64,000 bases of DNA from positions 682,001 to 746,000 of the forward strand of contig JAIVFI010000012.1 in assembly GCA_025558095.1 (NCBI GenBank). Reading direction: 5' to 3'. The position numbers and the translations under genes were made by a program. How positions within the stretch are numbered: the stretch's first letter is position 1; each line of letters starts with the position of its first letter. This document shows positions 8,739-51,086 of this stretch, piece after piece. The notes beneath the pieces were generated by a model. It saw only the letters and a list, made by a program, of their open reading frames with translations. It was not told where the DNA came from and ran no database searches. The DNA is from Hyaloraphidium curvatum SAG 235-1. Taxonomy: Eukaryota > Fungi > Monoblepharomycota.

Positions 8739-10200
8739 ATGGAGACGGCCGACAAGCGCGTTTTCGAGGCTTTCGAGCAGCGTTTTACTAATGCGGAATG
8801 GCTCTGCTTGTTCCCCGAGGGGCTCAAGGACCCGGGGCCCCTCGACGCGCCGTTGCCTCCCGACCCTGCCGCGGATCTCCGCATGGTTTCTCCCGTCACG
8901 CGTGCGACGCTGGTCCGCGAGCTGCGCCCGGAGTCGCTGCCCGCGGCGGCCGCGGTGGCGGTGCAGACCGCGCTGGTGCCGCACTCTGCACTTCTGGTGC
9001 CGTGGATTCTGGCCGGGTCCGCGGGCATCGCGGTCGTCACAATCGCCGCGTTGTTCGGCAACGCCGTTCTGGGCGTGTTTGGGACGCCGCAAATGGCCGC
9101 GGGCATCGCCGCCGTCCTGTTCTACGCCGTGCTCAGCGGCGTGGCCGGCTCGACCACCGTGCTCCCCACACTCCTTACGCGCCACGCCGCGCCCTCGCAG
9201 AGGCCGCGCGACGCCGACGCCAGCTCGCACCCGTACGCGCCCATCGCGCGCTGGCTGCAGCTCAGGCGCTTCGCGGATGGCACGGAACCCACGCGCCTCC
9301 TCGCGCACGACCCGCGGGACAAGTTGTGCCCCTGTCCGGACCCCGCGTGCGCAGGAGGGCTGCCGGCCGCCGCCGGGTACTGGCGCACAGCCGAGTTCGT
9401 CGTCAGGGTGCTCGCGGTCTACGCCCTCTACTTCTCTCTGTTCTACACCGCCTTCGTCACGCTCGGCGGCGTGATCTGGCACTCGTGGTGGGGCATAGCC
9501 GCCTCCACGTTCGCCCTCATCAGCACCTCTGGCTTCGCCGCCTTCGCCATCGCCCTCCGCTTCGGCGGGAACCCCCCAGCGCGGCGCCTCCTCTTCCGCC
9601 TGCGGCACCGCGCCCTCGTCCTGTGCCTCCGCTCCATGCTGGACCACTACCGCCTCGCCCCGCACGACGCCGGCGAGAAACCTCCCTGCGACAAATCCTA
9701 CCTCGCCCTGCACGCCGCCCTCTCCGTCTCGTGGGACGATCGCACGGTGCCCATGACCTCGGCCGGCTTCATGGCGGTGTACTTTGCCGGTGCCGCGGTC
9801 GGAGGGATCATCAACGCCACCGCGGGGTCGTGCGTCCCCGTGTGGTGCTTCCTCCTCCTCGCGCAGATGCTGGTTGCCGTCACGGTCGACATGGTCAATG
9901 CCGCGGCGACCAACGAGGAGATCTCGGCGGCCGCGGAGCTGTACCTCCGCGCGGGGGCGGAGCTCCAGCTGCTGCTCCCGTTCCACGCCGACCCCGAGCG
10001 CACCGAAATGGCGTCCCGCGCGGCGGGGCTGGGGATGTTTGCCAACGCGGGGGGGAGGAAGCCCAGGTTGGCGCGTGGCAGTCGATTTCGGGGTCGTGCG
10101 GACGGTCCTGGTGACGGCCTTCACGGTGTTCATCGGGTTGTGGACGCTGCTCAGGTCGGCAGGGGTGGACGTGGTGATGGATATGGCGTGCAGGGGGTGA
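8739..10200 (+). pseudogene. 7TM family member 1 (GRL/DUF3537-like), with a frameshift at a G-run near 10050 (real lesion or assembly error)
   Basis: HDPRDKLCPCPDPAC motif and hydrophobic helices. The family C-terminus (GWRVAVDFGVVRTVLVTAFTVFIGLWTLLRSAGV) lies in a different frame. Confidence 0.75.
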
Positions 10201-22244: not shown

Positions 22245-22880
22245 CGCGGGTGTTGAAAGGCGTGGAAGAGGGTTGAAGGGCGTGATCCGGGTCACTTCAT
22301 TGCGACATCTCAACCGCTTCCCCACCGCTTGCGCTGCGCCGCCAACTCGCATGCGCCACAAGGAGAAAAACCCCGCACGCGCCCCCCGCCGCAGCCCGCC
22401 CCAAAAACCGCAGCCGGCATCTGATCGGCCGCGTTCTCCGCAGCTCTGGAGGAAATGGCCCCATTTGGTGCCCCATCCGCTGCTGGAGAGGGGCAATCGG
22501 CGGATGGCACCTAAAGCCTGCCGAGCTCCCCGGACACTTGGCGCTCTTGCAAATTAGAGATATGCATCGACGGCGCAACGAAGGTGATTGGACTGGACAT
22601 AATGCAGTTTCTTCCGTCTCTATCGGTCATATGGATTGTTCCTTCCCGTCTGGCGTTCACGCACTGCTGGGCAGCCACTTGATGGATGCGACGGGGAAGC
22701 CCAGGCCATCGGAGCGGTCGAAAATGTCACTTCATTCAATTTAAAGGCCGTCCGGACAGGATGGGGGTAGTTGAGGGGGTTCAAGACTTCCGCAGCACCG
22801 GCCTCCCCGTTGTCGCGTCGACCGCGCGTCCGCACCTCCCTCCGCAGGCCCTTTCCCCGACATGGGAATCCCGCGTCACG

Positions 22881-23480
22881 ATGGAGAAGATGCTCGACCG
22901 CGTCATGAAGGAGGTGGCGAACCTGCCCAAAGGATTCCGGCACAAGGTCCGTCCCCCCCGCGACCCGTTTCCCGTTTCCAGGACCGACGCGCTCCCCCTT
23001 TCCATTCGCCTCCCGCGCGCGTCTGCCACCCATCGCGCCACGCAGATAAAGGGCGCCGAAGCCAGGATGGTCGCCGAAGCCCTCACCGCGTGAGCGGACG
23101 GCGTCGGCGACGACTGCAACGTGACGCCCAACAACCTCCCCATCTTTTCCATGCTCTCGCCCCACCAGCGGCTCCAGCTCGTCGCCGAGGTGGCCATCGG
23201 GATCATGTGCAAGAAGGAGCCCTTCCCGCCCAACTCGCTGGAGCACGTCTCGGCGCTGTACGCCATCTACGAGAAGGTCTACACGGAAATCGAGGTGGAG
23301 ATCGATTCGGACGACCTGGTGCTGGCCGGGCAGGAGGACGACGACGGGGAGGCGCCTGCCGCCCCCGCAAAGCCGTCGCGTTCGCTGGAGGACTGGAGCG
23401 CGATGGCGGACAAGCTTGTGGCCGACTCCCGGTTCAGCCTGCGCATGGGCAAGGAGAAGCGCAAGGCCGCACGGCCAGGT
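22881..23480 (+). pseudogene. Disrupted gene of unknown function (in-frame TGA at ~23091), cut off at the retrotransposon junction
   Basis: MEKMLDRVMKEVANLPKGFRHK|intron|IKGAEARMVAEALTA*ADG...LSPHQRLQLVAEVAIG. Coding-like sequence stops where the RT ORF ends. Confidence 0.5.
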
Positions 23481-25044
23481 ACGAGCCCGCGAGCCGCGTG
23501 ATGCCCTCCATAATGCCAATCGGCCGGAGCCCCCCCTCCGGCTTGAGCAGAGGGACGAGGATTTGATCCGTGAGGAGCGGCCGGAGCATGGGGGTGTCGA
23601 GTCGGCCAGTGCACACGCCGTGCACCATGGCCGCCAGCGGGCGGAGCTTCCGCCGCGTCGCGTCGTTCTCGCAGTTGTGCACGATGAAAAGTTTGGCCAT
23701 GCTGAAACCCGACATGCCGGCCCCCACGCCGTCCTTCTTCCGGCGCAACCGGGCCCAGATGTCCTCCAGGAAAGCCGCGTCCGTGTAGGCAGGGCAGGGC
23801 GCGGGCGCGTTGGGGGGCAGAGACAGCCGACACAGCGGCTCTCCCTCCCGCGGCCCCGGGTACAGCTCCTCCAGTTCCGCCTGAAGCGTGGGCGTGAAGC
23901 CAGCCGGAACGGCCTCCCCCGAGAGGGCCGCGGACGCAGCACCAGGAGCGCCCTTCAAGGCGGCAAGCACGATGGACTTGAAGAGCTGGTAGTTGAGCGG
24001 CCGCAGCCCGTCCCGCCGCGCGCCCCGGTTGACCTGACGGGCGGCGAAGTAGTTCTGCTCGTACATGTAGTCCCCCGACATGACGTAGCCGCCAAATGCA
24101 AGGTAGGCGGTGAGAGTGCGGTGCAGGTCGGTTTCCGGCGCCGCCGGGTCCTCGTAGGCCCGTTGGAAAGACTCGCTGGCCCGGAAGGCGAGCGTGCTCC
24201 AGGTGGTGGTCCGGTAGCGGTGCTTCAGCGGCTCCGGCGGCGGCGCCCCCGCGCCCCCGCCCGGCGGCGGATCAGGCCCGGGACCCCCGGGTGGACCACC
24301 GTCGCCCGGGTCGCCCGGATCACCGCCGTTGCCGTGCCCGCCAGCCGCGGCGTTGCCGCCCGGCGCGCCGTCGCCGCCTGGGGGATCACCGCCGTCCGGG
24401 GCGGCACGCGCCGCCGCCGCCGCCGCCGCCAGCGCCGCCCGTTGCGCCTGGCCGTCCTGCGGGGCGTCGGCCGCAACCCGGGCGGCCGCAAGGGCCGCCA
24501 TCAGCGCGGGCGCGGGTGGCGAAGCACGGGGAGATGCCGACGATGCCGCTGGTGACGCCGGTCCCTCCGCGCGTCCCGTGGCAGCCGCCCGCTCGGCACG
24601 CACGCGGTCGAGGAACTCGACGAGATCGGGTGGAAGCGAAGCTAAAGAGACGCCGAGTGGCGGGTTAGCTGCGTCCGGGTTGCACGAGGTGTGCTGTCCA
24701 GAAACACCGGCACCAGAGGCGTTTGCGGCGTAGGGACGCCGGCAACCCCCGCACCGCGCTAGCCCCATGGCGCGCAACGCATCGGCAGACAGGCGCTGCA
24801 TCGCCAACCAGTGCTCCGGGCTCCGTGTGACCCGAAGATGACCGTCCCGTTTGTTTTTGTTTGGAGTTGGCTGGAAGCGGCAACCATCAACCGGGCACGC
24901 ATGGAGGCCGGGTTCAGCAGGCGCCTCCGCCATCGGCACATCGCCGTCGATGCAAGATTGGTGATGATGAGATAGAGCTCCGATGTTGGCGAAAGCTGCC
25001 GCGCAGCGGTGGCAGCTGTAAGGCAGGAGCGGCGTGCGGCTCAT
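23434..25044 (-). pseudogene. Zinc fingers plus truncated reverse transcriptase (only the N-terminal RT motifs remain)
   Basis: CHRC..HHHQSC, CPVDGC..H..H and CGGC..H..C fingers; AGMSG; LVPLLKPEGGLRPIGIMEGITRL. No YxDD motif or endonuclease domain is present. Confidence 0.8.
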
Positions 25045-25892
25045 GGCGAATACGGTGGCGGCGGCGATGCCGGTGTCCCGCCGCCAGGATCAGCTACCGC
25101 GGACGGTGCCTTGTCCGACGAGATCTCCCAATCGTCGAGCGCATGTGTCCGCATCCAAACCTCCTGTGACTCGGTCAGGTCGCCCCCCGCCCTGTGCCAG
25201 GCCGCAAGCGCCGACCACGCGTCACCGATAGCATCACGGCCGCCGTCATCGAGGAGCTCGGAACCTGGCCATTCGAGGTGCGCCGGCGAACCGGGCTCCG
25301 TGTGAGCATACCAAGGAGGCAAGGTGCGCGTCGGAGTGGATACTTCCGAGGAGCTCTGCCCCCCCCCGGCCGTTGGTGCCGGCGGCGTGCCGGGGGTTGT
25401 GCGGGGCGGCGCAGGCGGCAGCTGCAAGCTCGGCACGGCGGTTGCAGCTGGGGTTTCCCACGGAGGATGGCCTGGGTGCGCCGAGAGCATGGAAGCGGCC
25501 GAAGCCGGGGCATCAGCGATCAAGATCTGCGATGACGAGGAGGGAGATACTTCCGAGCATGCCGCCCCTTTCCCCCCCGCTGGTGCCGGCAAGCGGGAGG
25601 AGCCGCGGGGCGGCGTGGGCAGAGTGTGACCCTCGGCCAAGCTAGGCACGGCATTTGGCCGAGGGGCCCCGGGGGACGCGGGGTCAATGTCGGAAGTCTC
25701 CCCTGCTGCCGCGAACGGCCTCGGAACTCGGTGAGACGTTGTAGATAGTGGTAGTTGGCGTACCGGTGAAGACTGCAAAACAGCAAAAGATGGAGGGGCT
25801 GACCGCGCCCGGGAGGTATCCGGACGAGCTCGGCGCCGAGAAGAGCAGCCCACTACTCGGCGTTGCCACTTGCTTGGTGGTGTTTTAGGCAT
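25041..25892 (-). CDS. Pro-rich intermediate ORF of the element
   Basis: 283-aa ORF. Its ATG overlaps the ORF1 stop region and its TGA overlaps the next ATG (ATGA). Confidence 0.4.
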   Translation of the reverse strand: MPKTPPSKWQRRVVGCSSRRRARPDTSRARSAPPSFAVLQSSPVRQLPLSTTSHRVPRPFAAAGETSDIDPASPGAPRPNAVPSLAEGHTLPTPPRGSSRLPAPAGGKGAACSEVSPSSSSQILIADAPASAASMLSAHPGHPPWETPAATAVPSLQLPPAPPRTTPGTPPAPTAGGGQSSSEVSTPTRTLPPWYAHTEPGSPAHLEWPGSELLDDGGRDAIGDAWSALAAWHRAGGDLTESQEVWMRTHALDDWEISSDKAPSAVADPGGGTPASPPPPYSP

Positions 25893-28023
25893 TCAAGGAC
25901 GGTGAGCCAGGAGCCGGCAGCAGGGATCCGGTTGACGTGGAGGCGGCCTTGGCCTGGGGGGAGCCGAGCTTGCGAACGGCCGCCTTGGCCTTCCGTTCCG
26001 CTTTGGCGGATTTGACGTCGATTTGCTGATACGGCTTGGCAACCTTGTCCGGGTTTGTCCCTGCCACATCCTCCACGGGACGGCCCTTGCCTGCGTGCTT
26101 GGGGCCTGGGGCCATCGTAGGATCACCAACCGCGGATGCCCCAGCGGCCTCATCGGCCGTGTGCATGTCTTCGCTTGGTGCCTCCGAGTTCGAACCATCG
26201 CCCTCAGCAGAGGCTTCGGAGGCGGCGTCGTTTCCACCCGAGGCCTCAGAGCCGGTGGCATCCTCCTCCATCGCAGATTCCGTGCCCTCCATTGCGGGAG
26301 CAGCAAGCTCCAGATCCTCCAGCGCGGTATTGGCTGCAACCTGCTGTGCAGCACTGCTGATGGCGTTCTCAGCGGCCAGCTGGTCGGCACCACCCATGTC
26401 CTCGTCCCCATCCTTGTCAGCCGGCTCCAAAATGGGAAGACCATGGAAATCCATCTTTTCGGCGGCGTCAGACTCCCCCCAATCGACCGAAGCACCGGCA
26501 CCACCACCACCGAGTGCCGAAAACCTGTTGTGGGACGCCTTGGCCACTGGCTGGGCAAGAGCTGGGGGCGCAGAGCCTGCGCGCTTGCCGGACGGCCCAG
26601 CTGTAAGCCACTCGTTGGCCGCAGGGGCGGTGGGGGAAGCCAGATGCGGAGGAACGACCTCTTCCCTCAGGGGGGGCAGCCGCGGGGTCGTGGCGGGCTC
26701 CACCGTTGGGGGAGAGAGCCGTACGTTGGCCGGGTTGTGAATGCAGTCCGCCTCGTGCGCACGGCGTGCTTGCGGGCTGGCAAAGGCGCCGGGATTCATG
26801 CGGTTGAGACCGTCTGGGCAGTAAGCACAGTTGGTGCACGTGGCATCGTCACCGACGTGGCCGCCCGTGCGCTTGCAGTGGCCGCACTGTCCGTTGCTAC
26901 TGTCATAGCGGACAGCTGGGCGAAGGAGCTTGTGCTGGAGGAGTGTCCCCCACGAGTCAAGGAAGCAGTACGAGGGTGGGCCAATGCGTGCTGCGCGGTC
27001 AAAGAAGGCATCAACCCCGCACTGCGAGACGTCGAAAGTGACCCGCCAGAAGGCGTTGCTGTCGGTGCCCGAGATGGGAGCCGCTTCAATGACTTGGCAA
27101 GGGGCCCCATAGTGGTTCTGGAAAGTCGCGTAGAGGCGGGCCCACCAGTCCGGGCACTCGTGCACCGAACCAGGGACGATCATGGGCCCGATCTTGAGCT
27201 CGGCGTGCGTGTCCTTGAAGACAGGGTGGATGCGCAGCCGACGCGTCGGGCCGTTTGGGAACTTGACCTCCAGCACCCCCTGCTCCACCAAGGCGTTGAT
27301 AGCGTCTGCCCCGTCGACAGCACCAACAACACAGAAGAGGTCCAGTCGCGAGTAACGCGGGTTGTAGCCTCGCGTCTCGGTCGTGAAGACGGTGGTGGGG
27401 AAGGTCGCCTTCGCCACGGCTTCGGCGACGACGCGCCGTCGGTCCTTTGGCACACCGTTGAGGTCGATGAGGCAGTGGGGGACAGGCCCAATGAAGGCCG
27501 GCGTGTAGCCCCGACCGTTGGCGTGCGGTTGCACCCGATCGATGAGCTTGGCGTAGTTGGTGGGCGCCGAGAAAGGCATGGCAGAAGCCAGATGCTCCGC
27601 CATCGCGCCGTCCGTGACACGAACAATCGGGCGGTCGGGCGAGGTGCGCGACGTTGCTGCGGCGAAAGAGCGAGACCCCAGGCGCGTGGCGGGGGCGGTT
27701 GCTTTCGGGAGACGATTCTGCGGAGCCGGCTCCTCCCGGGCGCCGCCGTTGGCGGACGCGGGGCGGATTTCAGTGGTCGATTCAGCAGCGTCCTCCTTAG
27801 AACCTGTCAGCTGAGCCGTAGCACCAGCGGGGGCCGGCGCGGGCTCCTCTGCCGCGCCAGGGAGGCGAGGAGAGGCAGCGACGCCGGGAGCGTGGGAAGA
27901 GTGGACGGGATTCGCAAGCGCCTCCGAGGAGGCCGCGGCGAGCGCAGGGGAGACCTTGCCATCAGGCAGGACCACGGGAGCGGCCGCATCATTGGGCCCC
28001 TGCCCTGTGTCAGGGGGGTCCAT
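25885..28023 (-). CDS. Retrotransposon ORF1 (gag-like, zinc knuckle)
   Basis: CGHCKRTGGHVGDDATC knuckle followed by CAYC...H...C, with low-complexity flanks. Confidence 0.7.
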   Translation of the reverse strand: MDPPDTGQGPNDAAAPVVLPDGKVSPALAAASSEALANPVHSSHAPGVAASPRLPGAAEEPAPAPAGATAQLTGSKEDAAESTTEIRPASANGGAREEPAPQNRLPKATAPATRLGSRSFAAATSRTSPDRPIVRVTDGAMAEHLASAMPFSAPTNYAKLIDRVQPHANGRGYTPAFIGPVPHCLIDLNGVPKDRRRVVAEAVAKATFPTTVFTTETRGYNPRYSRLDLFCVVGAVDGADAINALVEQGVLEVKFPNGPTRRLRIHPVFKDTHAELKIGPMIVPGSVHECPDWWARLYATFQNHYGAPCQVIEAAPISGTDSNAFWRVTFDVSQCGVDAFFDRAARIGPPSYCFLDSWGTLLQHKLLRPAVRYDSSNGQCGHCKRTGGHVGDDATCTNCAYCPDGLNRMNPGAFASPQARRAHEADCIHNPANVRLSPPTVEPATTPRLPPLREEVVPPHLASPTAPAANEWLTAGPSGKRAGSAPPALAQPVAKASHNRFSALGGGGAGASVDWGESDAAEKMDFHGLPILEPADKDGDEDMGGADQLAAENAISSAAQQVAANTALEDLELAAPAMEGTESAMEEDATGSEASGGNDAASEASAEGDGSNSEAPSEDMHTADEAAGASAVGDPTMAPGPKHAGKGRPVEDVAGTNPDKVAKPYQQIDVKSAKAERKAKAAVRKLGSPQAKAASTSTGSLLPAPGSPSLNA

Positions 28024-28332
28024 TTAGCCTCAGGGACGTACGCGGTAAGCACGATGGGTTGCCTGGCACTTTGGTCCCCCGCGGCCACTCTCAGGTTCTC
28101 TACGTGCTTCCACAACTTAGGATCGGTCGCTGTGGCGCAGCTCTCTGCTGGTCGCAGCATTCACGGACTTCATCGACGGGTCAATCGCCGGCGACGAGTG
28201 GTGCCGTAGCGGAACCGCCAGCTCCGACCGAGTTAATGTGACCCGCATTCTCACAGAACACTGCGGCGCTCATGCTGGAAAGATGGAAGGCGACGGAGAG
28301 ACGGCTGAGGCCGCGGATCAGCGTCTCCCCGT

Positions 28333-29847
28333 TCAAGCCCGCGGCGGACACACGAGCTCGCCCGTCAGCACGACCCCCAGCCCCCGGAGCACGCTCCACA
28401 GCCCCACCGCCAGCGTCACCGCGGTCACCAGCAGCGTCCTCAGAGCGCCAAAGGTCACCACGAACCCCAGGAACCTGGCCCTGTACCTGTCGGCCCCGGT
28501 GTACCCGGTCAGCACCTGCACGTCGGCGTCCAGCGCTGCGGCCAGGGCCGGGTCCGCGCGGGAGGGGCACGCGAGGAGCTCCCGCCGGAGATCGGCCAGC
28601 TCCTGCGCCGCGTCGAAGTACAGCGAGCGGATGTCGTCGATCTGGGCGTTGGCGGCTGCCACGTGCACGAGGTCGAAGAGGAAGGTGGCGAGGAGCTGGT
28701 AGAGCAGGTAGGCCGGGTACAAGGCGGGGAGGCACGCGCCGGCGGCCATGTTTGCGCAGCCGGCGACGACGGCAGCGGCGACGGGGATGAGCAGAGGCGA
28801 AGACGCATTGTAGCTCCTGATACGGTTCCGCCAGCCGGAGGCAAAGATGCGGTGCAGGTCCATGTAGGCTGCGCGCTGCGGGTTCTCGGAACCTGTCCAG
28901 GAGCCGGAAAAGGCGGCGCTGCGGTACCACTCGACCAGTGGCGTCAGCGCCAGCCTCATCGCGCGGCGGTTGATTCTGCGGGACAGCTGGAGGAGCGGAA
29001 GGTTCGTCGAGAACCGACCAAAGGCGATCGGGATTCCAAAGGCAACGGTGCCTGCGAGAAAGAACGCGCACATGAATGCAGACCAGGGAGTGGCCCAGAT
29101 TGCGAGCATCATGGGAGGGAAAATTGAGGCGCCGGCCAGGAAGAAGGTGGTCATCAGGAGGTAGATGCCGAACTTGAAGGCCGATTCTGCCACCCGGGCC
29201 ACACCTGCGCGGAGCGGGATGGTTCCCGCGCACGATGCGTTGCTGCACGGGCACAGAAGGTCCTTCGGATCGTGCTCAAGCAGGGATCCCGCAGTTGCCG
29301 GGCGGCGAGCCGCGAGCTGTATCCACCGGGCGAGCCCGGCCGCACCGTGGGAAGAAAACTCTGGTGAAGACTGCGGCATCCCCGACGGTGAAGCGGATCC
29401 AACGGTCTTGAAGGTGCTCCGGTACACCGAGAAGATCGAAACCAGGAACGTGCAGGCGGTGCCCATCACAAGGAAGGCTGCCATCCCGACAGCGAGCTGC
29501 GGAACACTGTAGTACCCGCCGCCGAAGACGCAGACCACGGCCGTTAACCCAATGAAGCCCAGGAACGACCACGTGGCCCGGACGAATGTCCTTCGCGACC
29601 ACGGGTGCACAAAGACCTGCAGCCGCACGGAAGCGGCCAGGGCTCCCGTTTGGGGGCGCAGCGCGGCCAAAAGCGCCTCCAAAGTGAGCGGCCGCTCGGA
29701 GCGCACGGCGGCGGCGGGATCCCCTGGCGGCGAGGCCGCGGGGAGGTCGGGGAACCACTCCGGCGCCGCGGGGAGGACGGCGAGCCACTCGTCCTCGTCG
29801 AGGCGAAACTCCGCGGGAGGAACGTCGATCTTTGCGTCGCCCGACAT
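28333..29847 (-). CDS. 7TM family member 2 (intact, intronless)
   Basis: HDPKDLLCPCSNASC, seven hydrophobic segments, and RARFLGFVVTFGALRTLLVTAVTLAVGLWSVLRGLGV. Confidence 0.85.
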   Translation of the reverse strand: MSGDAKIDVPPAEFRLDEDEWLAVLPAAPEWFPDLPAASPPGDPAAAVRSERPLTLEALLAALRPQTGALAASVRLQVFVHPWSRRTFVRATWSFLGFIGLTAVVCVFGGGYYSVPQLAVGMAAFLVMGTACTFLVSIFSVYRSTFKTVGSASPSGMPQSSPEFSSHGAAGLARWIQLAARRPATAGSLLEHDPKDLLCPCSNASCAGTIPLRAGVARVAESAFKFGIYLLMTTFFLAGASIFPPMMLAIWATPWSAFMCAFFLAGTVAFGIPIAFGRFSTNLPLLQLSRRINRRAMRLALTPLVEWYRSAAFSGSWTGSENPQRAAYMDLHRIFASGWRNRIRSYNASSPLLIPVAAAVVAGCANMAAGACLPALYPAYLLYQLLATFLFDLVHVAAANAQIDDIRSLYFDAAQELADLRRELLACPSRADPALAAALDADVQVLTGYTGADRYRARFLGFVVTFGALRTLLVTAVTLAVGLWSVLRGLGVVLTGELVCPPRA

Positions 29848-29972
29848 GTTGGATAATGACGAAGCGCGGATACTGTAGCACGCGAAGGACAGCCCGTCAG
29901 ACAGCAGTCTGCGATAGGAATCTTCGATCCTTTGCCACTTGGCCGTCCCAACTCGAGCCCGGGCTGCACGCG

Positions 29973-31616
29973 ATGGAGACCGAACTCCCGGTGCCTTTGC
30001 TGCTGAGTGCGGACGAGTCCGCGCTCTCTTCCCCGCCGTCCGGCGGCCCCCGCCGAGCGCGACCTCGGCGGCGCCGCCCCGGATCTCCGCAGCCAGCAAT
30101 GCGACGCCGCGCACGGGCTCCGCGACCGGCCGCTGACCGAGGCCGAAGTACTGCGCGCGCTCGAGCCGCACCCGGGGCTGCGCACGGTCCTGCGGCTCCA
30201 GCTCTCTCCCTTCGTCAACTCCTACCCGGTGCTGCGGCGGATCCCGGCCTTTGTTACGACCATGACCCTCATGGCGACTATCTGGTTGCCGAATGACGGC
30301 CGGTTCGGAACTAAGCAGCTCGCGACCTGTGTGTTCGTGCCGCCGCCGGGGCTCCGAATCGCCCGCTGACGCGTTGCCAGATTGCGTCGCCCTCCCCCTG
30401 GTCTGGCTGGGCAACGTATTCGTCTTTTTCATTTTCTTTTCGTGTTCAAAGTCCCGGCACGAGAATGCCCCTCGGCGGCTCGCGTCGCCGGCCTGGAAGC
30501 ACACGCGTTGGCGCCCCTAGTGCTCTGGCTGCAGCTTTCTTTCCCAACCTCGTGCTCGGGACAACCGGATGCTGAGCATGGGGGCGCGAAGATCAGGCCG
30601 GGCGGCCTCCTCGTCGCGCACGAGCCCGACGACCGGCTCTGCCCCTGCCCCCGCGCGGAGTGCGCCGGTTGGATCCCGGGGCGGGTGCTGCTCGCGCGAC
30701 TGGCGGTGCAGGTTCCGCGCAGCCTCGTCTACTTGTTCATCACGTACTTTTCGGCGCGGTGGACCCAGCTCGTCACCTTTGGGGCGTCTACGTGGGGAAT
30801 GCCGTGGACGTGTGCCGTGGCATCGCTTGCCCGTACGCAATCGAGCTCCGCTCTACGACACGAGCAGGCCCCTGTTGAACCTGAACGCCCGCCTCACGCA
30901 TAGGGCCCTCAGGCTGCACCTGACGGTCTTCATGCGGCGCTACCGGGATGCCCTCGACAAGGACGCCGGTGCTTCAATGCCGGCCCTTCCCGAGGCGGAG
31001 CCCTACCAGGCGCTGCACCCCTGGATCGCCGCGACCTTCAACCAGCGCATCGTTCAGCTGGGCCTCTCGCAAGCCTGGTACTCTTCGATGATCGTCTGCT
31101 TCGTCGTCTACATTGCCCTCTTCATCGTAGGTGCCACCGGGATATCCACGGTACCCGCATCGCCCACCGGCCGCGCCCCGCCAGGCCACCGGATCCTGCA
31201 TCCCCCTCGCATTCTTCACCACCCTCATCCTCAACATCATCCTCCTCGTCGTCGAGCTGGGCCTCGTCGCCACCGGCAACACGCAGGTCTCCACCGCCGC
31301 AGACCTCTACCTCCAGGCCCGCCGCGAGGCCCGCGAACTTACGGCCGCGGCCACCATCCGCGCCGCCTGCGACCCCGATCCTGACCGTTCGGCCCACGCG
31401 GCGAAGCTCTCGGCGGCGCTGGTCCGCCACGCGGACGTGCTGGGCTCGTTCGCGGGCATCGGGGAGCGGAGGGTAAGGTTTCTCGGGTTCCCGGTGTCGT
31501 TCGGGACCGTGAGGACGCTGTGCATCACCGGGTTCACGGTCGGGTTCGGCCTGTGGAGCATCCTGCGCGGCGCGGGGGTGTTTCTGACGGTGGAGTCGGC
31601 CTGCCCGAACGTGTGA
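29973..31616 (+). pseudogene. 7TM family member 3, with multiple frameshifts
   Basis: HEPDDRLCPCPRAEC, an intron at 31127-31184, and VRFLGFPVSFGTVRTLCITGFTVGFGLWSILRGAGV. The 5' half is spread over several frames. Confidence 0.75.
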
Positions 31617-31806
31617 TTGGCCGGAGCGGCAAGCAGCGGGTGACCGGGATGTTCATCCATCAGGGCGGGATCATTACGTTGCTTGAGCATGCCGAAGACT
31701 TCTGATGTCAGATGTCCATGTACAGATTGCATTGCCTCCCCGGGTCCAGGCTGTGCACGATGGAACATTCCTCGTTGCGTTAGCCGGCCGCCCTCCCATT
31801 CGCGCG

Positions 31807-33433
31807 ATGGTGGCCTCCCAGCTCTCCCTCGCCGGCCAGCCCGTCGCATTCACCGCCGAAGAATGGACGGTGATGTTCCCCGCGGCCGAGGCGGGCGACG
31901 GCTCCGTATTCGAGGGCCAAGTGCCGGCGGAGGAGGATCCCGCCGCGGACCACCGCCGCGCCGACCCGCTGACCCGGACGGCGCTGCTTGCCGAGCTGCG
32001 CTCACGGAGCGCGCTGGCGCACGCGTTTGTGGCGGTGCAGTTCGCGGTCGCGCCGTGGGCCTCGCGGACCGTGCTCCGGTTCTTCCTGCACGCCGTCGGC
32101 AACATCCTCATGCTCGTCTGGGTGCTCAACAACGACGGCGGGATGTTCGTCGGCGCCAGGAGGACCTCCGGGGTCATCGCATTCGTGTTTGCTAGCCTCG
32201 GCGTCGGCCTCCTGTTCCCCTTCTTCTCAGTGATCAAGAGCAAGTACGCCGAGCTGGCGGCGGGCGCCGAGGACGCGAGCAGGCTCACCTACGCGCAGGC
32301 CGCGCGATGGTCCCAGCTGGTCCGCAGGATCGGCCAGGCCGGCGTCGCAAAGCCCGAAGACGCCGAGGCGGGCAAGGAGTCGCAGGAACCAATGTCTCTG
32401 CTGCTCGCGCACAATCCCAAGGACCCGCTCTGCCCGTGCGCCGATCCCGATTGCGCGGGGGACCTGCTGCGGACGGCCGGCATAGCCCGTGCGGGCGACC
32501 TGGTTTTCCGGATTTGCATCTACCTCGTCGCCCAGGGGCTCATAATTAACTGGACGGGGTTCGTGACTCTTGGGGACAGCCTCTGGTCCTCGCCGTCCGG
32601 CGTACTAGCGGCGATCCTTGTCAGTGAGTGCATGTCCTCAGTTCGGCCGCTTGCAAGCTCCAATCGAGCCCCCAAATCCAGTCGCCGCAAACCTCAGCTT
32701 GTTCGTCACCACGGCCGTCAGCCTCGTGCCGGCCATGCCCCCCGTGCACCAGCTCGCGCTCCGGATCCACCACCGCGCCATGTCGCTGGCACTCGCTTCC
32801 CTGTTGGCGAGGTACCAGCGCGCGCTCTTCGGTCCCCAAGACGGATCCAAGCTCGCACAGATGCCGCACGAAACGGAGCCCTACACAAAGATCCACACTT
32901 TCCTTGTCGCCAACTGGTCTCGCGGCGACCCATTCATCCTGACGGGGGGCAAGTTCTTCTCCATCACCACCGCCGTCTACATCATCTCGGGGTTCATCTT
33001 TGCCCTGGGGGGCTCCTGTATCCCGGCCTTTGTGCCCTGCTTCCTCCTCGTGCTTCTCGCCATCTTCACCCTGGACCTGGTCAACTATGCCTACGCCAAC
33101 GGACGGATCAACTCCATCACGGATCTGTACCGAGATGCGCAGCGCCACGTGCAGGAGATGATGCACCGCGCAGACCGTGCCATCCCCGCCGGCGACGCCG
33201 AACGCAGGCAGCTCCTCTTCGGCCTGCAGATCCACGACCGCATCCTGTAATCATACGTGGGCTCGCACAGGCACAAGGCCAAGCTGCTGGGTTTCCCGAT
33301 CGACTGGACCGTCATCAGGACGCTCTACCTGACCGCGATACCCGTGGTGTTTGCGCTGTACTCGGTGCTTGGTGGGGCGGGGGTCAGGTTGACCATGGAG
33401 ACCCTGTGCCCGGCGCCGAAGCCGGCGGCGTGA
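31807..33433 (+). pseudogene. 7TM family member 4, with a premature TAA at 33248-33250 before TM7
   Basis: HNPKDPLCPCADPDC and an intron at 32624-32681. After the stop the frame continues KAKLLGFPIDWTVIRTLYLTAIPVVFALYSVLGGAGV. Confidence 0.75.
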
Positions 33434-33618
33434 TTGGCGGCGCGGCCAGGATGATCGGACTTTCGGGCGACAGGTTGTACCCTACCACCGTCCGAATCAC
33501 AGGTAGAATAGACGAGGGCTTCGGCGGAGTGTTGGTCGGAACCGCTGTCCCGCTCCTCGCCCAACCCTCGCCCGTCAAAACCGCTCGCGACTGCCCCCTC
33601 CCCTACGGGCCTGAAGGG

Positions 33619-34602
33619 ATGGCGGAACCTCCGAAGCCCGTTTCCTTTTCCGAGGCGGAGTGGTTGGCCATCTTCCCCGCGTTCCCCACCGTCCCTCCGT
33701 CGCTCTCGGCCGCACCCTCGCCGGCCGACCGCGCCGCCTCGCTGCGCGCCGCCAAACCTCTCACGCCCGGCGCGATGCTCCGCACCTTGAGACGCGCGGA
33801 TCCGCTCCTGGCCGCGTCCCTCACGCAGTTGCCCTGGGCGTCTTGGTCTACTTGATCCCAATCATCGGCCGCTTCTCCACCAACGCCTCCCTGCTTCGCC
33901 TTTCGCAACGGGTCCAGCATCGCGCCATGCGCCTCGCCCTTTCGTCGTTCCTGCAGCGGCTGCGGCGCGCGGCCCTCAAGGGGGACGTCGACATCGACGC
34001 TGCACCGCTGTATATCGAGCTGCAGGATCTGTACGCCTTGGTGTGGCAGCGCCGGATCTCTGCGACTAACGTCGGCACGCCCCAGCTGATCTTTGGCGGG
34101 GTGGCGGTCCTCTGCGCCATCGCAAACGTCGTAGGTCGATCTTGCGCGACCTCTGAGCTGCCCTTTAACCCGGACCCGCCGCAGGCCGTCGGTTCCTGCA
34201 TCCCCTGGTTCTTCATCTGCTACGTCTCCTACTTCATCCTCCTCACCTTCATCGACCTGATCAACTTTTCCGTCTCCAACGGCGCCATCGCCTCGGTCCG
34301 CGACCTCATCCTCGACGCCCGCGCCGAGGTCCGCGCCTGTCTCGCTGAACCGTCCCTCGCGATCGAGGGGAAGCTGACCGAGGGGCAGCGCGCGGCCGTG
34401 GCGCTGCTGAGGGCGCACGACGGGGTCCTGGCGGGCATGGAGGACGCGGACAGGTACAAGGCCAGGTTCCTGGGGTTCCCGATCGATTTCGGGGTCACGA
34501 GTGCTGGTGACGATCATCACCATCGTCATCGGCCTGTGGAGCATCGTCAGGGGGCAAGGTGCCTTCGTAACGCTGGAGATGGCATGCCCGTTGGTCAGAT
34601 GA
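33619..34602 (+). pseudogene. 7TM family member 5, with an internal deletion of TM1-3 and the Cys motif, and a frameshift near 34500
   Basis: The family N-terminus FSEAEWLAIFP jumps to GRFSTNASLLRLSQR. Intron at 34131-34184; KARFLGFPIDFG. Confidence 0.7.
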
Positions 34603-34710: not shown

Positions 34711-35757
34711 CTATGAACGGCGCTTCGTCGTCACAACCTTCTTGCGAGTTGTAGTTTTCTTCCGCGCCGACGTTGTCTTCTTCCTCGCTGTCGTCTTCTT
34801 GTTTCCGCTCTGCACCCGGAGGGGAGAGGTTCCTGTGGGGCTTCTCCGTTGGTGACATCCACGGCGGATACAACCCTTGAGCGCACGCACCCATCCTGCC
34901 GCAGCTCTCAACGTAGCTGCGCGCGGCCGGTCCGAGAATGATGGAGAGCGCCTGGCCCGTGGGGCCGAACGGGCTCTGCCGGCACATCCTTCCATTGAGC
35001 AGCGGAGTGCGGCATCCCGCCGGCACGGGCCGGGTGGCGTTGTTCTGGGACGGGACGTGATCAGCGTCGGCGAGCGGGGGGAGGGAATGCGCGCGGCCGT
35101 GCGCGGCCCGTGACATACGAGGAGCATGCTGGCGGCGACGACGGAGAGCCCGTTCCTGGGAGGCAGGTCGCACGTCTGCGTCGTGTTGGAGAACCAGAGC
35201 TCGTAGTTGAACCCGTTCTGCTTCAGAGCATCCGGCACCGGCCCCGAGTCGATCCCTGTGGGCAGACCAATCCGATCAGGTCCTGTCGAGCAGCCGTGGC
35301 AGTTCCTGTGCGACCCACAGCCGTAGAAGCCGTCGCTGGTGATTGACATTGTGTTTCCAGGCCGGCACCACGTGCGGGTCGGATAGCCGCCCTGCATGAG
35401 CGTCGTGCACTGGGCCGTTGCTTGGGAGGCGGCATAAAAGGATGGGCACGGCCCGGGGCGCACGCCCACGGTCAGCGAGATGCGACCGGGCAGTGGGGAG
35501 GTGCTCGCTTGGGGCGGGGGATTAGCGGTGGTTGTCCAACGGCACGGCCAACGGCCGCGCCACATACCAATGGGAGGCCCGCATTCCGGGCTGCCGGAAA
35601 TGCCGCTCCAGAACGGCTGGTCCAGGTAGATCACGGTGTATATCACGCCGGCGTCGGCGGGGGACGACGATGCGACGAGGACGGCCAGGACGGCCGCTGC
35701 CAGCGCCGCGGCCGTAGTCCGGAGAAGGGGCTTCGGGGGATTGGGAGCGCGGGTCAT
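34711..35757 (-). CDS. Secreted Cys-rich protein with a Lys/Thr-rich tail (spliced)
   Basis: Signal AAALAAAVLAVLVASS, many Cys, and a C-terminal KKTTARKKTT repeat. The exon structure is inferred. Confidence 0.55.
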   Translation of the reverse strand: MTRAPNPPKPLLRTTAAALAAAVLAVLVASSSPADAGVIYTVIYLDQPFWSGISGSPECGPPIGMWRGRWPCRWTTTANPPPQASTSPLPGRISLTVGVRPGPCPSFYAASQATAQCTTLMQGGYPTRTWCRPGNTMSITSDGFYGCGSHRNCHGCSTGPDRIGLPTGIDSGPVPDALKQNGFNYELWFSNTTQTCDLPPRNGLSVVAASMLLVCHGPRTAARIPSPRSPTLITSRPRTTPPGPCRRDAALRCSMEGCAGRARSAPRARRSPSFSDRPRAATLRAAAGWVRALKGCIRRGCHQRRSPTGTSPLRVQSGNKKTTARKKTTSARKKTTTRKKVVTTKRRS

Positions 35758-36100: not shown

Positions 36101-37195
36101 TCACCACCCCATCCCCGCCGCCGGTCCCCTCCCCTTCCACTCGACGCGGGGCGCCGCGGACCAGGCCTCCCGCTCCGCCCTCCCACCGGGGGTTTCCCAC
36201 GCCTCGGCCGAGAGCGGGCCAACGTCCATCACGATCCTCGGGAGCGAACCGCGGGAGAACATAGAGGGCACGAGCACTAGGTCCGAAGAGGCGAGGGACG
36301 GGAGCGGGTCTGTGGCAACCAAGGTGGCCAGTCCCGAAGGGAAGAGCCCGCCGAGCGCGGCGAGCAAAAGCACGTTCGTCGACACCCCGAAGAGGGTGAT
36401 CTTTCGCGTCCCCGCGAACGGTTCCAGGAGCTCCCAGATCCCCGGGCCCGCGGCGTCGGCGCGGAGCACCGCCAGCCTTTCCATCCCCGGCGCCAGACCC
36501 GCCAGCGCAGCCAGCGATTTCCAGTGCACGCATGCGGAGCGGAGCTTCCGCGCCAGGGAGGGCAACTTGGCCAGCTTGGCCCGGGCGGGGTCCAGGAAGA
36601 GCGCGTGCAGGTCGCGCAGGTTCGGGGCGCGGGAGAGGGAGCGCAGCAAAGGGGGGAGGCGGGCGTCGGTGCCCGGCGGGAAGAAGAGGCGGACGGCGAG
36701 GAGAGAGGGGGGGAAGGTAGCGCCGTTGAAGGACGGGACGCCGTCCGGGTGAAGGTCGAGGTCCAGGAAGGCCAGGCGGGCGGCGCTTGGGAGCAGCTTG
36801 ACCAGAGGGGCGCAGGAAGGGGAGTCGGCGCGCAGAGACAATCGACGAATACTCGGCAGGCAATTCTTCAGCAGGGATATGAGGGCCGCGCGGTGCGCCG
36901 GGGAGCGCTGCGCCGGGAGCACGAGCTCGCGGGTGTGGCGCGCGGCCCGCGGCGTCAGGCCAAGGAGAACCTCCGCAGAAAATCTCATGGGCACGACGTC
37001 CAGCGAGCGCAACAGCGCCGGCTCGGCGAGTGCGTGGCACGCTTTGGAGGCCAGCGCGGTCCGCAGCAAGGTCAGGTGGCAGCGCCGCGCCGAGAGGGCG
37101 CACATGACCGCGAAGAGTAGCTCTGGAGGGAGCACCCAACCCGACGGCTCCCCCGCGGGGTCGCACGCCCCGGGCGCGGTCGAGCTGCCCAGCAT
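36101..37195 (-). CDS. F-box-like/LRR protein (start uncertain)
   Basis: LPPELLFAVM...TLLRTALASKACHALAEPALLRSL followed by leucine-rich repeats. Confidence 0.7.
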   Translation of the reverse strand: MLGSSTAPGACDPAGEPSGWVLPPELLFAVMCALSARRCHLTLLRTALASKACHALAEPALLRSLDVVPMRFSAEVLLGLTPRAARHTRELVLPAQRSPAHRAALISLLKNCLPSIRRLSLRADSPSCAPLVKLLPSAARLAFLDLDLHPDGVPSFNGATFPPSLLAVRLFFPPGTDARLPPLLRSLSRAPNLRDLHALFLDPARAKLAKLPSLARKLRSACVHWKSLAALAGLAPGMERLAVLRADAAGPGIWELLEPFAGTRKITLFGVSTNVLLLAALGGLFPSGLATLVATDPLPSLASSDLVLVPSMFSRGSLPRIVMDVGPLSAEAWETPGGRAEREAWSAAPRVEWKGRGPAAGMGW

Positions 37196-37567
37196 AGACC
37201 CGTCCGTGAGATCTAGCGTCGGTTTGTTAGGGGCAGTCCCTTGCCCGCAACCGCCGCCTGACATTGCGACGCGCGATTCCGTGATCTGACGGTCCGCAGC
37301 GGTGCAAACACGAAGATTCAGTAGGCCATCGCCACTTGCGGTACTCCGTAGCGTCGCCGTCTGCCACTGGACGCTGCTATTCGTGGATCTCTGGCCCGCG
37401 ATTGTCTCCCATTGCGGCATTCCGGGTCTCGTCTTCTCGGCCAAGCGATCCCGAATCGCGTCTGGAAGCCCATTATTCAACACCGATTGGATTCGTCTTG
37501 AGCTGTTTTCCGCACCCGTCAAAACCCATTCTCGCACTCGGATCCCTTCCCCGCCTCACTACCGACA

Positions 37568-38410
37568 ATGGCGCCACCTGACACCTCCCTCCGCGTCACC
37601 CTCCTCGGCACCGGCTCGCCCACCGCCTCCCTCGCGCGCTCCCATCCCGCTGCCCTCGTGGAATGGGGCCCGCGCGGATCCGGACACTGCGCGCTGGTGG
37701 ACTGCGGGGACGGCACGGTGCAGCAGCTGCTCAAGGCCGGGGTGAAGCTCAGCACTGTGACGATAATCGGGTTAACTCACATGCACTGGGACCACATTTT
37801 GGGGTACCCTGCATTCGTGTGGGGTAGCTGGCTCGCCGGCAGGCCCAAGCTGAGGACCTACGGCCCGACCGGCACCGAGGAGATGCACCAGCGTTTAGTC
37901 AGGTCGTACTACGCCGACCAGGCAGAATGGGGCATCGATCTCGGGTTCAGAAAGGAAGGGTGGGAGGACATCAAGGTGCTCGACGTGGAAGACGGGTGGA
38001 CGGCGGACCTGGACGGGGGCTGCACGGTCCGCGCGGGGAGGGTCGAGCACCCCCCCATGGCGTCGCTGGGGTACCGCTTCGAGCACGGCGGCAAGTCGAT
38101 CGTCATTTCTGGCGACGTCGCCCGCTGCGACGAGCTCGTGAGGCTTTCACGCGACGCCGACGTGCTCGTCGTCGACGCCTGCGCGGCGCCGCCGCCGGAC
38201 ACCGCGCCACCCCAGCGGCAGAAGCTGATCGAGAAGCTGCACGGGTTCCATGCCAGCCCGCAGGATTGCGTGGACATGGCGCGCGCGGCGGGGGTCAAGC
38301 ACGTGGTGCTGACGCACCACCTGCCCGAGGTGGGGGTGCCGAGCTTCGATGCGGAGGGGTACGAGGGGAAGGTGACCGTGGGCGAGGATTTGATGGTCGT
38401 CGAGGCGTGA
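37568..38410 (+). CDS. MBL-fold metallo-hydrolase (RNase Z/AtsA-like), intronless
   Basis: LLGTGSP, LVDCG, THMHWDH, SGD, H-ASP and LTHH motifs. Confidence 0.9.
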   Translation: MAPPDTSLRVTLLGTGSPTASLARSHPAALVEWGPRGSGHCALVDCGDGTVQQLLKAGVKLSTVTIIGLTHMHWDHILGYPAFVWGSWLAGRPKLRTYGPTGTEEMHQRLVRSYYADQAEWGIDLGFRKEGWEDIKVLDVEDGWTADLDGGCTVRAGRVEHPPMASLGYRFEHGGKSIVISGDVARCDELVRLSRDADVLVVDACAAPPPDTAPPQRQKLIEKLHGFHASPQDCVDMARAAGVKHVVLTHHLPEVGVPSFDAEGYEGKVTVGEDLMVVEA

Positions 38411-45195: not shown

Positions 45196-45353
45196 CTCCC
45201 GTTGCGTCATGATAGCTCCACGTGCATGCCCCGACGGGCATGGCCTAACAGCGTGCGGAGTTTCTTCGTCAGCTGGCGATTCTCAACTTCCCGCCTCGAT
45301 TTCGACGAACATAAACACCTCCTAGACGCGTCAAAACGGCGTCACTACTGGAG

Positions 45354-46250
45354 ATGGACCCTGCATCAGCAGAAAGCGGCTCGAACGCCCTGCCGCCGCC
45401 GCAGGCGTGCCTCGCGTCGCTCCCGCCCGAGCTGCTCCCCGCCGTCGCTGCACCCGCTGGGGCGCCGGGATCTCGCCCGCTGCGCCGCAACCTGCCGCGC
45501 ACTGCACGCCGCCGCGATGCCTCTACTGCTACGCGCCCTGCGGCCCGTGCGACGAGACTTCCCGCTCTTCGAACGCGTGCTCAAGAACCGGCTCCTCGCG
45601 GACATGGTGCGCGAGCTCGATTTGGACGGCGGGCTGGGACAAAAGGACATGGCGTGGTGCCTGCGCGTCTTTCGGAGGATCAGGCAGCTGCGCGTCGAGT
45701 TGGCTTGGAACTGCATCCCCGCGCCGGATGCCCTGCGGGGCATCGAGGGCCTTGAACACCTGGAGCTGGGGTTCCGCGACCACGGCGGCGACGTCTTTCT
45801 GGCTGCGGCGATTTTTCCTCCATCGCTGCGGAGTCTTGCTATAAAGGTGGCACCTTGGGTCACGCAGGCGCCGCCGGAAGGATTGCTGCGGCGGATCGAG
45901 GAGGGGTCCCCGCGGCTGGATTCGCTCTCGTTCGCACTCGTCACGAGCGACAGCAGGCCGCAATCTTTGTTCCTGAAGCGGCTGGAGAGGATCATCAGGG
46001 CCTCGTGGGGAAGCTCGAGGCACTCACAAGCGGTGCGGCCGCGTTGCCGAGAGAGCTGGTCGAGCACGCGCTGTTCGCTCCGAGGACGCTGGAACTGCAC
46101 TTTTCCCACGGGGAAATTGTCCCCGATTGGCTCCTCGCGAGGCCGGCCCACTGCACCGGATCCGCGACTATCCAACGGCAGGGCGGCGCACCCCCACACG
46201 TACTGCCGATTCTGGGCGGGTTGCCCCATGCCGCCGGGCCGCCTCGTATC
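45354..46250 (+). pseudogene. Frameshifted F-box/LRR paralog of 51127-52344
   Basis: Near-identical LASLPPELLP, LGRRDLARCAATCRAL and LDGGLGQKDM blocks, with frameshifts near 45445 and 46000. Confidence 0.75.
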
Positions 46251-46406
46251 AGGCTCCTCAGACGGCAAACTCCTGACGTACCGCCTGCTACTACACCGAG
46301 TCCGCCACCAAGTGCAACATGAGGGACCCCGCGGACCCACAACGACGAGGTATCATTCAGAGGCGTTCATCGTTCGCGCCTGTACAGAACACCGCCGGCA
46401 ATCGAT

Positions 46407-49469: not shown

Positions 49470-51086
49470 TCACGAGCCGGCGCGGCAAGCAAAGTCCATG
49501 GTCGCCGTGATCCCGAGCCCCCTGACGATGCTCCACAGCCCGACCACGAGCGTGACCAGCGTGACCACCACCACGGTCCTCACGACATCGTAATCGACCG
49601 CAAACCCGAGGAACCTCCCCCGGAACCTCGCCACATCGGCGTACGAGGCGAGCACGGCGTCGTGCCGGCGGATGTCGGCGGCGAGCCCGGTGCCGCGGAC
49701 CACGGGCAGCTCGCGGATCTCGCGCTGCGCTTCGAGGTACAGGTCGCGGATGGAGGTCACCTGGGCGTTGGAGGCGGCGAGGGAGATGAGGTCGATGAGG
49801 GCGTGGCTGAGCAGCACGTTGGCGAGGTATGCAAGGTAGAAGGCGGGAACACACAACCCCGCGATCTGGAAACGCGGCGTGAGAACTCGAGAATAGAGCC
49901 ACTCGTTCCGTTGGGGTCTCACGATGTTGATGAGAGCCAAAACAACCGCCCCGAATGACGAGAACAGGGTCAACCTCGAGAAGCTGAAACTGGATATCCT
50001 CGTCCTCCAAACCGCCGTGAAGACGGCATGGAGCTCCGCGTACGGCTCGTCCGACACCGGCTCGCCGAGACGCGAAGCACCGGAGCGGAGGCGGAGGAGC
50101 AGATCCGCCAGGGCGAGCTTCATGGTCTTGTGTGCGACGCGCTCCGACAGCCTGAAGGTGCCGACATTCCCGGGGAAGCGGCAGATCGGGTTCACGTTGT
50201 GGCCAGCCAGACAGAGAACGGCGAATGCTCCGAGCGCAGCGGACCACGGAGTCGTCCAGAATTCACTCGCGAGGGTTACGACGGGGGTCCAGATCATCAT
50301 GAGCCCCATGCCGGTCATGAGAACCACCCTGAAGGAAGCCTCGAGGATCCGCAGCCAGGCAATGGCGCGGCCCAGGCCACCGGCGCATCCGGGAAGGCTG
50401 CAAGGACAGAGAGGATCGTTCGGATCGTGCGCGAGGAGCAGGAAACGCTCCGATTTCCCGGACCGCACAACGAGCTCCGTCCACCGTGCGAGGCCGGCGA
50501 GAGGGAACGCGTCGAGCAGCCCGGAACCGGATCGGGGCCGCGCGCCGAGCGCCCGGCGGTAGATGTCGAACGAAGGGTTGACGAGGAGGATCTGCGCCGC
50601 AAAGGCGAGCCACGTCGCATAGCCGATGGCGAGCTCCTTCGTGGCGAACAGGTCGCCGCGGAAGGCCCAAGTTGCCGAAACGGCGGCAGCCAGCCCTATG
50701 AAGACAACTGCGCTGCGCTCCAGGCTCCGGGCGGCAAACGGGGTCAACCACAGCTGCAGTGCCGTGATCGAGCGCAGGGCCGGCTGGGCGGCCAATCCCG
50801 CCAGCAGCTCCTTCTTGCCGAGCGGTCGGGCAATTCGGAGCCGCTCCGCACGATCTGGCGGCGGCGGGATTCCGGAGAAGGAGGGGACGAGCGCCGGGAA
50901 CGACGGCACCACGGCGAGGTACTCGGGCGGCGTCACGATGAAGCTCCCTTTGCCGTCCGCGTCCGCCGGGGCCTCTGCCGCGTTTAGTATGTCCACGACG
51001 ACGGCTCTGTCGCCGGTGCCGTGCTCGGGGGCCTCCAGGTGACACTGTGCACTATGCGAGGAAACGTCGGCGGAATCGCGGTCCAT
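49470..51086 (-). CDS. 7TM family member 6 (intact, with an in-frame intron at 49866-49922)
   Basis: HDPNDPLCPCSLPGC and RGRFLGFAVDYDVVRTVVVVTLVTLVVGLWSIVRGLG. Confidence 0.85.
   Translation of the reverse strand: MDRDSADVSSHSAQCHLEAPEHGTGDRAVVVDILNAAEAPADADGKGSFIVTPPEYLAVVPSFPALVPSFSGIPPPPDRAERLRIARPLGKKELLAGLAAQPALRSITALQLWLTPFAARSLERSAVVFIGLAAAVSATWAFRGDLFATKELAIGYATWLAFAAQILLVNPSFDIYRRALGARPRSGSGLLDAFPLAGLARWTELVVRSGKSERFLLLAHDPNDPLCPCSLPGCAGGLGRAIAWLRILEASFRVVLMTGMGLMMIWTPVVTLASEFWTTPWSAALGAFAVLCLAGHNVNPICRFPGNVGTFRLSERVAHKTMKLALADLLLRLRSGASRLGEPVSDEPYAELHAVFTAVWRTRISSFSFSRLTLFSSFGAVVLALINIVRPQRNEWLYSRVLTPRFQIAGLCVPAFYLAYLANVLLSHALIDLISLAASNAQVTSIRDLYLEAQREIRELPVVRGTGLAADIRRHDAVLASYADVARFRGRFLGFAVDYDVVRTVVVVTLVTLVVGLWSIVRGLGITATMDFACRAGS

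Follow-up and report, generated by a model that had tools for sequence, protein, structure and literature searches.

Insect odorant and gustatory receptors (OR and GR), together with the co-receptor Orco, are the Class-A founders of the seven-transmembrane ion channel (7TMIC) superfamily, whose function has been worked out almost exclusively in insects. According to the accessible text of PMC12635824, a split seventh transmembrane helix (TM7), consisting of a cytoplasmic TM7a, a beta-hairpin and a membrane-embedded TM7b, is a feature of 7TMICs, and the gate is formed by Val468 of MhOR5 and the Phe of the GR motif. Outside animals, GR-like (GRL) candidates have been accepted on topology and fold: PMC7746228 gives a single one for either of two chytrids, six for Thecamonas and Vitrella, and 4-12 for plants. 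The same source calls the TM7 motif diagnostic, though not definitive, for GRs; the GRLs of Spizellomyces keep just one of its four positions, and in plant DUF3537 proteins it is likewise described as unrecognisable. Here we describe a family of probable 7TMICs in a stretch of 64,000 nucleotides from the fungus Hyaloraphidium curvatum SAG 235-1 (GCA_025558095.1, JAIVFI010000012.1:682,001-746,000, forward strand), which is referred to as the window and holds six copies, A to F (Table 1).

H. curvatum is placed in Monoblepharomycota and is described in PMC6899921 as having neither flagellum nor rhizoid and a way of life that is not known. The eukaryotic DNA of the window is rich in GC and has introns of 52-88 bases. 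The proteins are annotated as hypothetical only, Pfam does not detect them, and we found no report linking Hyaloraphidium to them in the full-text literature, in a search whose coverage leaves out most subscription journals. A 2023 preprint (10.1101/2023.08.30.555482) recovered no chytrid 7TMIC in its screen, and its main text is silent on Hyaloraphidium and monoblepharids; its supplements and Dryad data may hold some of the sequences. The 12 of 53 supplementary files of PMC9998090 that were searched contain no Hyaloraphidium or monoblepharid names, and 10.64898/2026.06.15.732144, as far as its accessible text goes, deals with a different family. Within a known superfamily the proteins likely represent a new and much expanded variant, notable for its size and turnover.

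Predicted fold and conserved residues

The AlphaFold model of copy B contains seven transmembrane (TM) helices (87-108, 115-151, 210-241, 254-277, 349-370, 376-426 and 466-489), which coincide with the hydrophobic peaks of the family alignment, TM5 and TM6 merging into one peak of 38 residues. An earlier note on this DNA, which proposed a GR-like family, had given seven helices with short loops 1-2, 3-4 and 5-6 and long loops 2-3, 4-5 and 6-7, and the medians for loops 1-2 to 6-7 in 116 full-length rows (8, 79.5, 11, 73, 5 and 66 residues) agree with this, the inner loops being longer than the outer ones. The positive-inside bias predicts an inner N-terminus and an outer C-terminus in 115 of these 116 rows (mean K+R 18.9 on the N-terminal side versus 2.8), and the predicted architecture has neither the N-out topology nor the fold of G-protein-coupled receptors (GPCRs), so that here, too, the note's view was sound. 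TM4 to TM6 carry long cytoplasmic extensions in the model (helices 283-314, 323-370 and 376-426; pLDDT 93.5), and TM7 is split into a helix 433-449 (TM7a), two short strands at about 458-463 and the helix 466-489 (TM7b). In helix number, orientation, loop pattern, TM4 to TM6 extensions and split TM7 the predicted model shows the published features of the 7TMIC superfamily, and we think that the fold is very probably a 7TMIC fold by descent. Among viral structures, the three best matches of the model, with probabilities of 0.87-0.99, E values of 0.013-0.2 and TM-scores of about 0.3, are uncharacterised proteins of 440-577 aa from Edafosvirus, Catovirus and Yasminevirus; these could possibly be giant-virus proteins of the same predicted fold.

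TM7b is the most conserved helix and TM1 to TM5 are the least conserved, a pattern that the accessible text of the 2023 preprint describes for 7TMICs in general. One face of TM7b is formed by Gly467, Thr471, Thr475, Thr478, Gly482, Ser485 and Gly489. The structural alignments to OR and GR end in this helix, where in several rows the model residues 486-487 fall at position 444 of BmGr9 and 469 of MhOR5; other rows differ from this placement by one helical turn. Further conserved residues are particular to the family. In the first intracellular loop, His192 is found in 118 of 118 and Cys199, Cys201 and Cys206 each in 119 of 119 rows with a residue there, counts that are drawn from the best-scoring matches and are therefore biased toward conservation; judged from this sequence pattern, the site likely binds zinc. 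On the outer side, Cys372 and Cys500 are invariant among the rows with a residue, and the model places strands at 372-374 and 493-495; the two cysteines likely form a disulfide tying the tail of the pore helix to loop 5-6. Across rows whose median pairwise identity is 27% (7021 pairs), seven positions vary hardly or not at all.

The earlier note had also drawn on a C-terminal motif, (K/R)x(R/K)(F/L)LGFx(V/I)(D/T/S)xxxxRT, whose GF-x-hydrophobic-D before the last helix it took to be characteristic of insect GR and OR, GRL and plant DUF3537 proteins. In the window the C-terminal motif is whole in four of the six copies (B, C, D and F, in D behind a premature stop), while frameshifts interrupt it in A and in E. 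Across the family its strict form is present in only 12 of 120 rows, and in none of 2400 shuffles. Relaxed to G-h-x-[VI]-[DTSG], it is matched by 111 of 120 rows and by 141 of 2400 shuffles.

Copies, transcripts and family size

Searching the window with copy B (tblastn) finds five more copies, with best E values per copy of 1e-55 to 2e-19, and a hidden Markov model (HMM) from 120 family rows finds the same six loci (all segments E <= 4e-11) and no seventh, the sole additional row having an E of 0.75. Both the number of copies in the earlier note and its positions hold: these mark the ATG of A (8739), D (31807) and E (33619), the likely ATG of C (29973) and the stops of B (28333) and F (49470).

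Table 1. Coordinates of the family copies, of conserved sites in copy B and of other features of the window.
Feature	Position	Strand	Description
Copy A	8739..10200	+	Intronless; frameshift near 10068-10074, immediately ahead of the last membrane helix, TM7b lost
Copy B	28333..29847	-	Intact single-exon gene, 504 aa (P0001); basis of the AlphaFold models
Copy B, TM7b and C-terminal tail	28336..28452	-	Residues 466-489 and tail with Cys500; Thr/Ser/Gly stripe; putative pore helix
Copy B, His192-Cys199-Cys201-Cys206	29230..29274	-	First intracellular loop; putative zinc site particular to the family
Copy C	29973..31616	+	Pseudogene with spliced transcripts; two introns (30329-30380, 31127-31184)
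Copy D	31807..33433	+	Intron 32624-32681; in-frame TAA 33248-33250 after 461 codons
Copy E	33619..34602	+	Gene remnant; intron 34131-34184; reading frame broken near 33832 and near 34500
Copy F	49470..51086	-	Intact; one in-frame intron of 57 bases (49866-49922), 519 aa once spliced
Repeated element, ORF	23434-25044		536 aa
Repeated element, ORF	25885-28023		712 aa with Cys/His knuckle
F-box-like gene	21147-22352		Similar build to the other five; no Pfam F-box-like match
F-box-like gene	36101-37420		No Pfam F-box-like match
F-box-like gene	45226-46419		Pfam F-box-like, E 0.0043
F-box-like gene	51127-52344		Pfam F-box-like, E 5.7e-8
F-box-like gene	52361-53632		No Pfam F-box-like match
F-box-like gene	53700-54898		No Pfam F-box-like match
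M60-family metallopeptidase	54934-56502	-	Intronless; PF13402 (E 9.5e-57), PF17291; covered by X1 contig
Metallo-beta-lactamase-fold hydrolase	37568-38410	+	Single ORF; PF12706
Family III CoA-transferase	41615-43387	-	Single ORF; PF02515
Thr/Ser-rich, apparently secreted protein	2348-3313	+	
Thr/Ser-rich, apparently secreted protein	34711-35757	-	
Thr/Ser-rich, apparently secreted protein	61692-63998	-	EGF domain

Two of the six copies are intact (B and F) and four are broken (A, C, D and E). Copy B is identical over 498 residues to the H. curvatum model DFJ74DRAFT_666444. In copy A the HMM segments lie in different frames (8772-10070 for profile positions 10-452 and 10075-10194 for 455-494), and the NCBI model (P0017) runs into 160 unrelated residues. 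Three-frame translation of the spliced sequence and HMM segments reveal at least three frame breaks in copy C (before 30040, at about 30467 and at about 30832-30853). In copy D the hairpin and TM7b are lost through the premature stop, which is also where the NCBI model P0028 terminates; read-through of this stop was considered, and no supporting evidence was found. Copy E, as seen from its HMM segments, is without profile positions 77-256, which run from TM1 up to where TM4 begins. C, E and F have in common a phase-0 intron (31127-31184, 34131-34184 and 49866-49922) placed immediately ahead of the conserved G-S-C-I-P in loop 5-6; it is missing from A, B and D, for which intron loss or retroposition are possible causes.

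Sense splice joints are present for C, D, E and F in run X1, which is RNA by an automated guess that its many canonical splice joints support, and which comes from one study and may represent the same strain. Copy C has GT..AG joints and is matched without any difference by the contigs 28256-30098 and 30118-31935, as is copy D by the spliced contig 31999-33529, so that their lesions are real and transcribed and an assembly error as cause of the breaks in these two copies is ruled out; because such contigs drop variants, heterozygous intact alleles are possible. Copy E has low-depth GT..AG joints at 34030-34086 and 34130-34185. For copy F, a CT..AC joint at 49865-49923, corresponding to the sense strand, reaches a depth of 84, and a contig over 49923-51198 shows no differences. 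Copy B is covered by a contig (27995-30098) whose + strand GT..AG joint (28199-28256) is antisense to B, and for this reason we do not take the cover as sense expression. The contig may stem from an antisense transcript that begins close to the 5' end of the adjoining repeated element.

The size of the family was estimated with a 15-sequence profile against 1.84 billion representatives. A cut-off of E <= 0.001 was passed by 446 clusters, one of 1e-10 by 403 and one of 1e-30 by 271; since the clusters were formed at 50%, close paralogues are hidden. Among the best 150 of the 446 clusters, we sampled every seventh id (P0016 to P0148), and all 20 proved to be H. curvatum models, which gives a binomial lower bound of about 86% and hence about 130 or more of the 150 from this genome. 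Ten other listed relatives, mostly picked for odd composition, comprised six from H. curvatum, three from Logan and one JGI/ENA record. The family therefore has at least about 130 lineages in one genome, as the earlier note's large repertoire would have it, and by extrapolation 200-400 genes. It is dispersed, with 37 named H. curvatum proteins on 27 distinguishable contigs. Word-based homologue searches, too insensitive for this family, returned 11, 10 and five proteins, all of them from H. curvatum or P0008, and scans of metagenome and viral contigs, weak because their patterns were narrow, gave no confirmed locus.

In a midpoint-rooted FastTree phylogeny (127 rows, 441 columns) the copies have sisters elsewhere (A with P0032, B with P0003/P0004, C with P0053, D with P0062, E with P0117 and F with P0014; support 0.975-1.0). 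A recent tandem duplication as origin of the cluster of B, C, D and E is ruled out, because identities between its members are 30-41% and the phylogeny does not join them as sisters; the tree and sequences indicate that it is a gathering of old paralogues. Of the fast turnover inferred in the earlier note, continuing gene loss is supported; a recent tandem expansion of the cluster is not. Five relatives from metagenome or read assemblies (P0008, P0143, P0051, P0062 and P0089) nest in four different subfamilies, and the expansion is therefore older than this strain. In third-position GC the broken copies (0.82-0.91) resemble B and F (both 0.84) and two neighbouring genes (0.89-0.92), which suggests that the losses are recent.

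Candidate roles and rival explanations

We think that the proteins are ligand-gated sensory channels, with a probability of about 0.58, a view that draws on analogy with insects. The family would then be a repertoire of seven-helix channels of the 7TMIC fold that report dissolved chemicals, each intact gene encoding a subunit of a tetrameric cation channel, the four subunits of which would meet via the cytoplasmic anchor bundle. The pore would be lined by the Thr/Ser/Gly face of TM7b, with Val, Ile or Leu at position 486 near the outer gate, and the variable bundle of TM1 to TM6 would form the ligand pocket, so that each paralogue would detect different molecules. Copies would be born, disperse through the genome and be lost again to a frameshift, a stop or a deletion. 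A wider proposal is that H. curvatum, a single-celled fungus whose flagellum has been lost, independently evolved an insect-scale set of 200-400 OR-fold ligand-gated channels, a zinc/disulfide subfamily and the largest 7TMIC family outside animals, used for combinatorial sensing without neurons or motility; this is tentative, and we would place it somewhat below even odds.

The proteins could also be genuine 7TMICs that serve non-self recognition or defence instead of nutrient or odour sensing, each paralogue recognising a molecule of a parasite, predator or competitor and opening a pore that leads to a stress or death response, or acting as a non-channel receptor or small-solute conduit. Birth-and-death turnover, to which the four broken window copies testify, is equally typical of immune-type families, and the lack of a flagellum as well as the presence of another apparently expanded family in the window, the F-box-like genes, would suit such a role. 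However, neither of the two intact copies has a fused signalling or death domain, a variable bundle combined with a conserved pore fits small-ligand receptors, and the present data give no tie between expression and infection; we regard a defence role as rather unlikely.

Several observations weigh against any kinship with 7TMICs and would be explained if an independent seven-helix family had acquired a long cytoplasmic three-helix bundle that packs like OR and GR by chance. The structural alignments to OR and GR have identities of 6-15% and a root-mean-square deviation (rmsd) of 5-6.7 A, Foldseek TM-scores are 0.22-0.41 on Foldseek's own alignments (rmsd 9-23 A), about 0.5 or more to Orco being the mark looked for, and the anchor-bundle part of the model by itself aligns to three-helix bundles, which score equally high on this part. 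No profile link to known 7TMICs was seen in Pfam or among the PDB sequences: 7tm_6, 7tm_7 and DUF3537 of Pfam match none of 13 proteins at E <= 1 and none of 96 at E <= 0.05, and the PDB sequences give only chance matches (E >= 0.57) to the 120-row profile and to the C-terminal 137 residues of B. Other Pfam matches are scattered, in one protein each and well short of the cut-off, and none is credible (GP41 0.0035, GlfT2 0.0084, claudin 0.021, DUF4175 0.042, DUF3742 0.33, Cpta 0.82). The insect TM7 motif, (T/S)Yhhhhh(Q/K/E)(F/L/M), is found in none of 120 rows, TM7b reading T478-[VLI]-hhhhh-[SGT]-[VIL] instead, and the His/Cys motifs are specific to the family. The affinity to GR, OR and DUF3537 that the note asserted hence stands at the level of the AlphaFold fold and its structural alignment and not at that of sequence. 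The predicted split TM7 and helix extensions and the conserved TM7b are nevertheless those described for 7TMICs, and chance resemblance appears improbable to us.

That the family is a dying relic, once expanded and now mostly pseudogenes of little present function, would agree with the four broken copies, with the lesions of C and D in transcripts and with 40 of the 150 listed matches that cover less than 90% of the profile (28 at 70-90%, 12 less), but is very improbable, as 110 listed models cover at least 90% (frameshifts may go unnoticed in automatic models, and 120 rows of the same set went into the profile), seven positions remain near-invariant at such low identity, intact copy F is transcribed and spliced, and the losses look recent by their GC3.

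If the proteins are sensory channels as proposed, a non-swimming, freshwater-type fungus would possess a chemical-sensing repertoire of animal size, compared with the one to twelve genes reported from other non-animals, and the expansion and loss of OR-style repertoires would not be tied to animals or nervous systems. The culturable fungus would then provide a natural collection of hundreds of variants with which to ask if non-animal 7TMICs act as ligand-gated channels, and the repertoire may be a clue to its way of life.

Other window features and comparison with known systems

A repeated element (23434-28023, - strand) adjoins the 3' end of copy B. Over 25500-28068, runs X2 and X3 reach depths of 127-1300, versus 0-3.5 further right. 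The end of the 536-aa ORF, which has no Pfam match, looks to us like the start of a non-LTR reverse transcriptase; the element is likely LINE-like, with a second ORF that is cut short or spliced. The six F-box-like genes are possibly a second expanded family, and the three Thr/Ser-rich proteins, which have in common 'CP.CP.G...CCP' followed by poly-Thr, possibly a further cell-surface family. The M60 gene looks unusual for a fungus, and a bacterial origin is possible.

With insect OR, Orco and GR (6C70, 7LIC, 8V00, 8V3C, 8Z9Z, 8JM9 and 8VC1) the family shares the predicted fold, the inner N-terminus, short outer and long inner loops, the extensions of TM4 to TM6, the TM7a/hairpin/TM7b arrangement and TM7b as most conserved helix, and like their repertoires it is large, divergent and dispersed and contains pseudogenes. 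Unlike them, its members have about 500 aa with a conserved N-terminal extension of 60 residues, the His/Cys3 site in inner loop 1, invariant Cys372 and Cys500 and no TYhhhhhQF, in addition to the low identity and high rmsd given above, and no Orco-like co-receptor was identified. Since the TM7 motif is absent, we do not place the family as GR or GRL in the narrow sense. The PHTF-like proteins, Class-B 7TMICs encoded by conserved, low-copy genes, similarly have a long first intracellular loop on the 7TMIC core and reach Z 11.8-12.9, similar to Orco, but PF12129 matches none of the 13 and 96 family proteins. Plant DUF3537 proteins (PF12056), of the same 7TMIC class, are among the ESM Atlas neighbours of P0005 (0.93, 193 of 256 features), yet 109 proteins of the family are without a match to this Pfam model, and the plant families have 4-12 members. 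The placement is at the level of the 7TMIC superfamily, with Class A versus B left aside, and neither as narrow-sense GR nor as Pfam DUF3537. The GRLs of chytrids and protists (Spizellomyces punctatus, S. palustris GRL1; Thecamonas, Vitrella GRL1-6) are likewise non-animal 7TMIC candidates (PMC7746228); compared by description, with no sequence link seen, one GRL per chytrid and six per protist stand beside at least about 130 lineages in H. curvatum.

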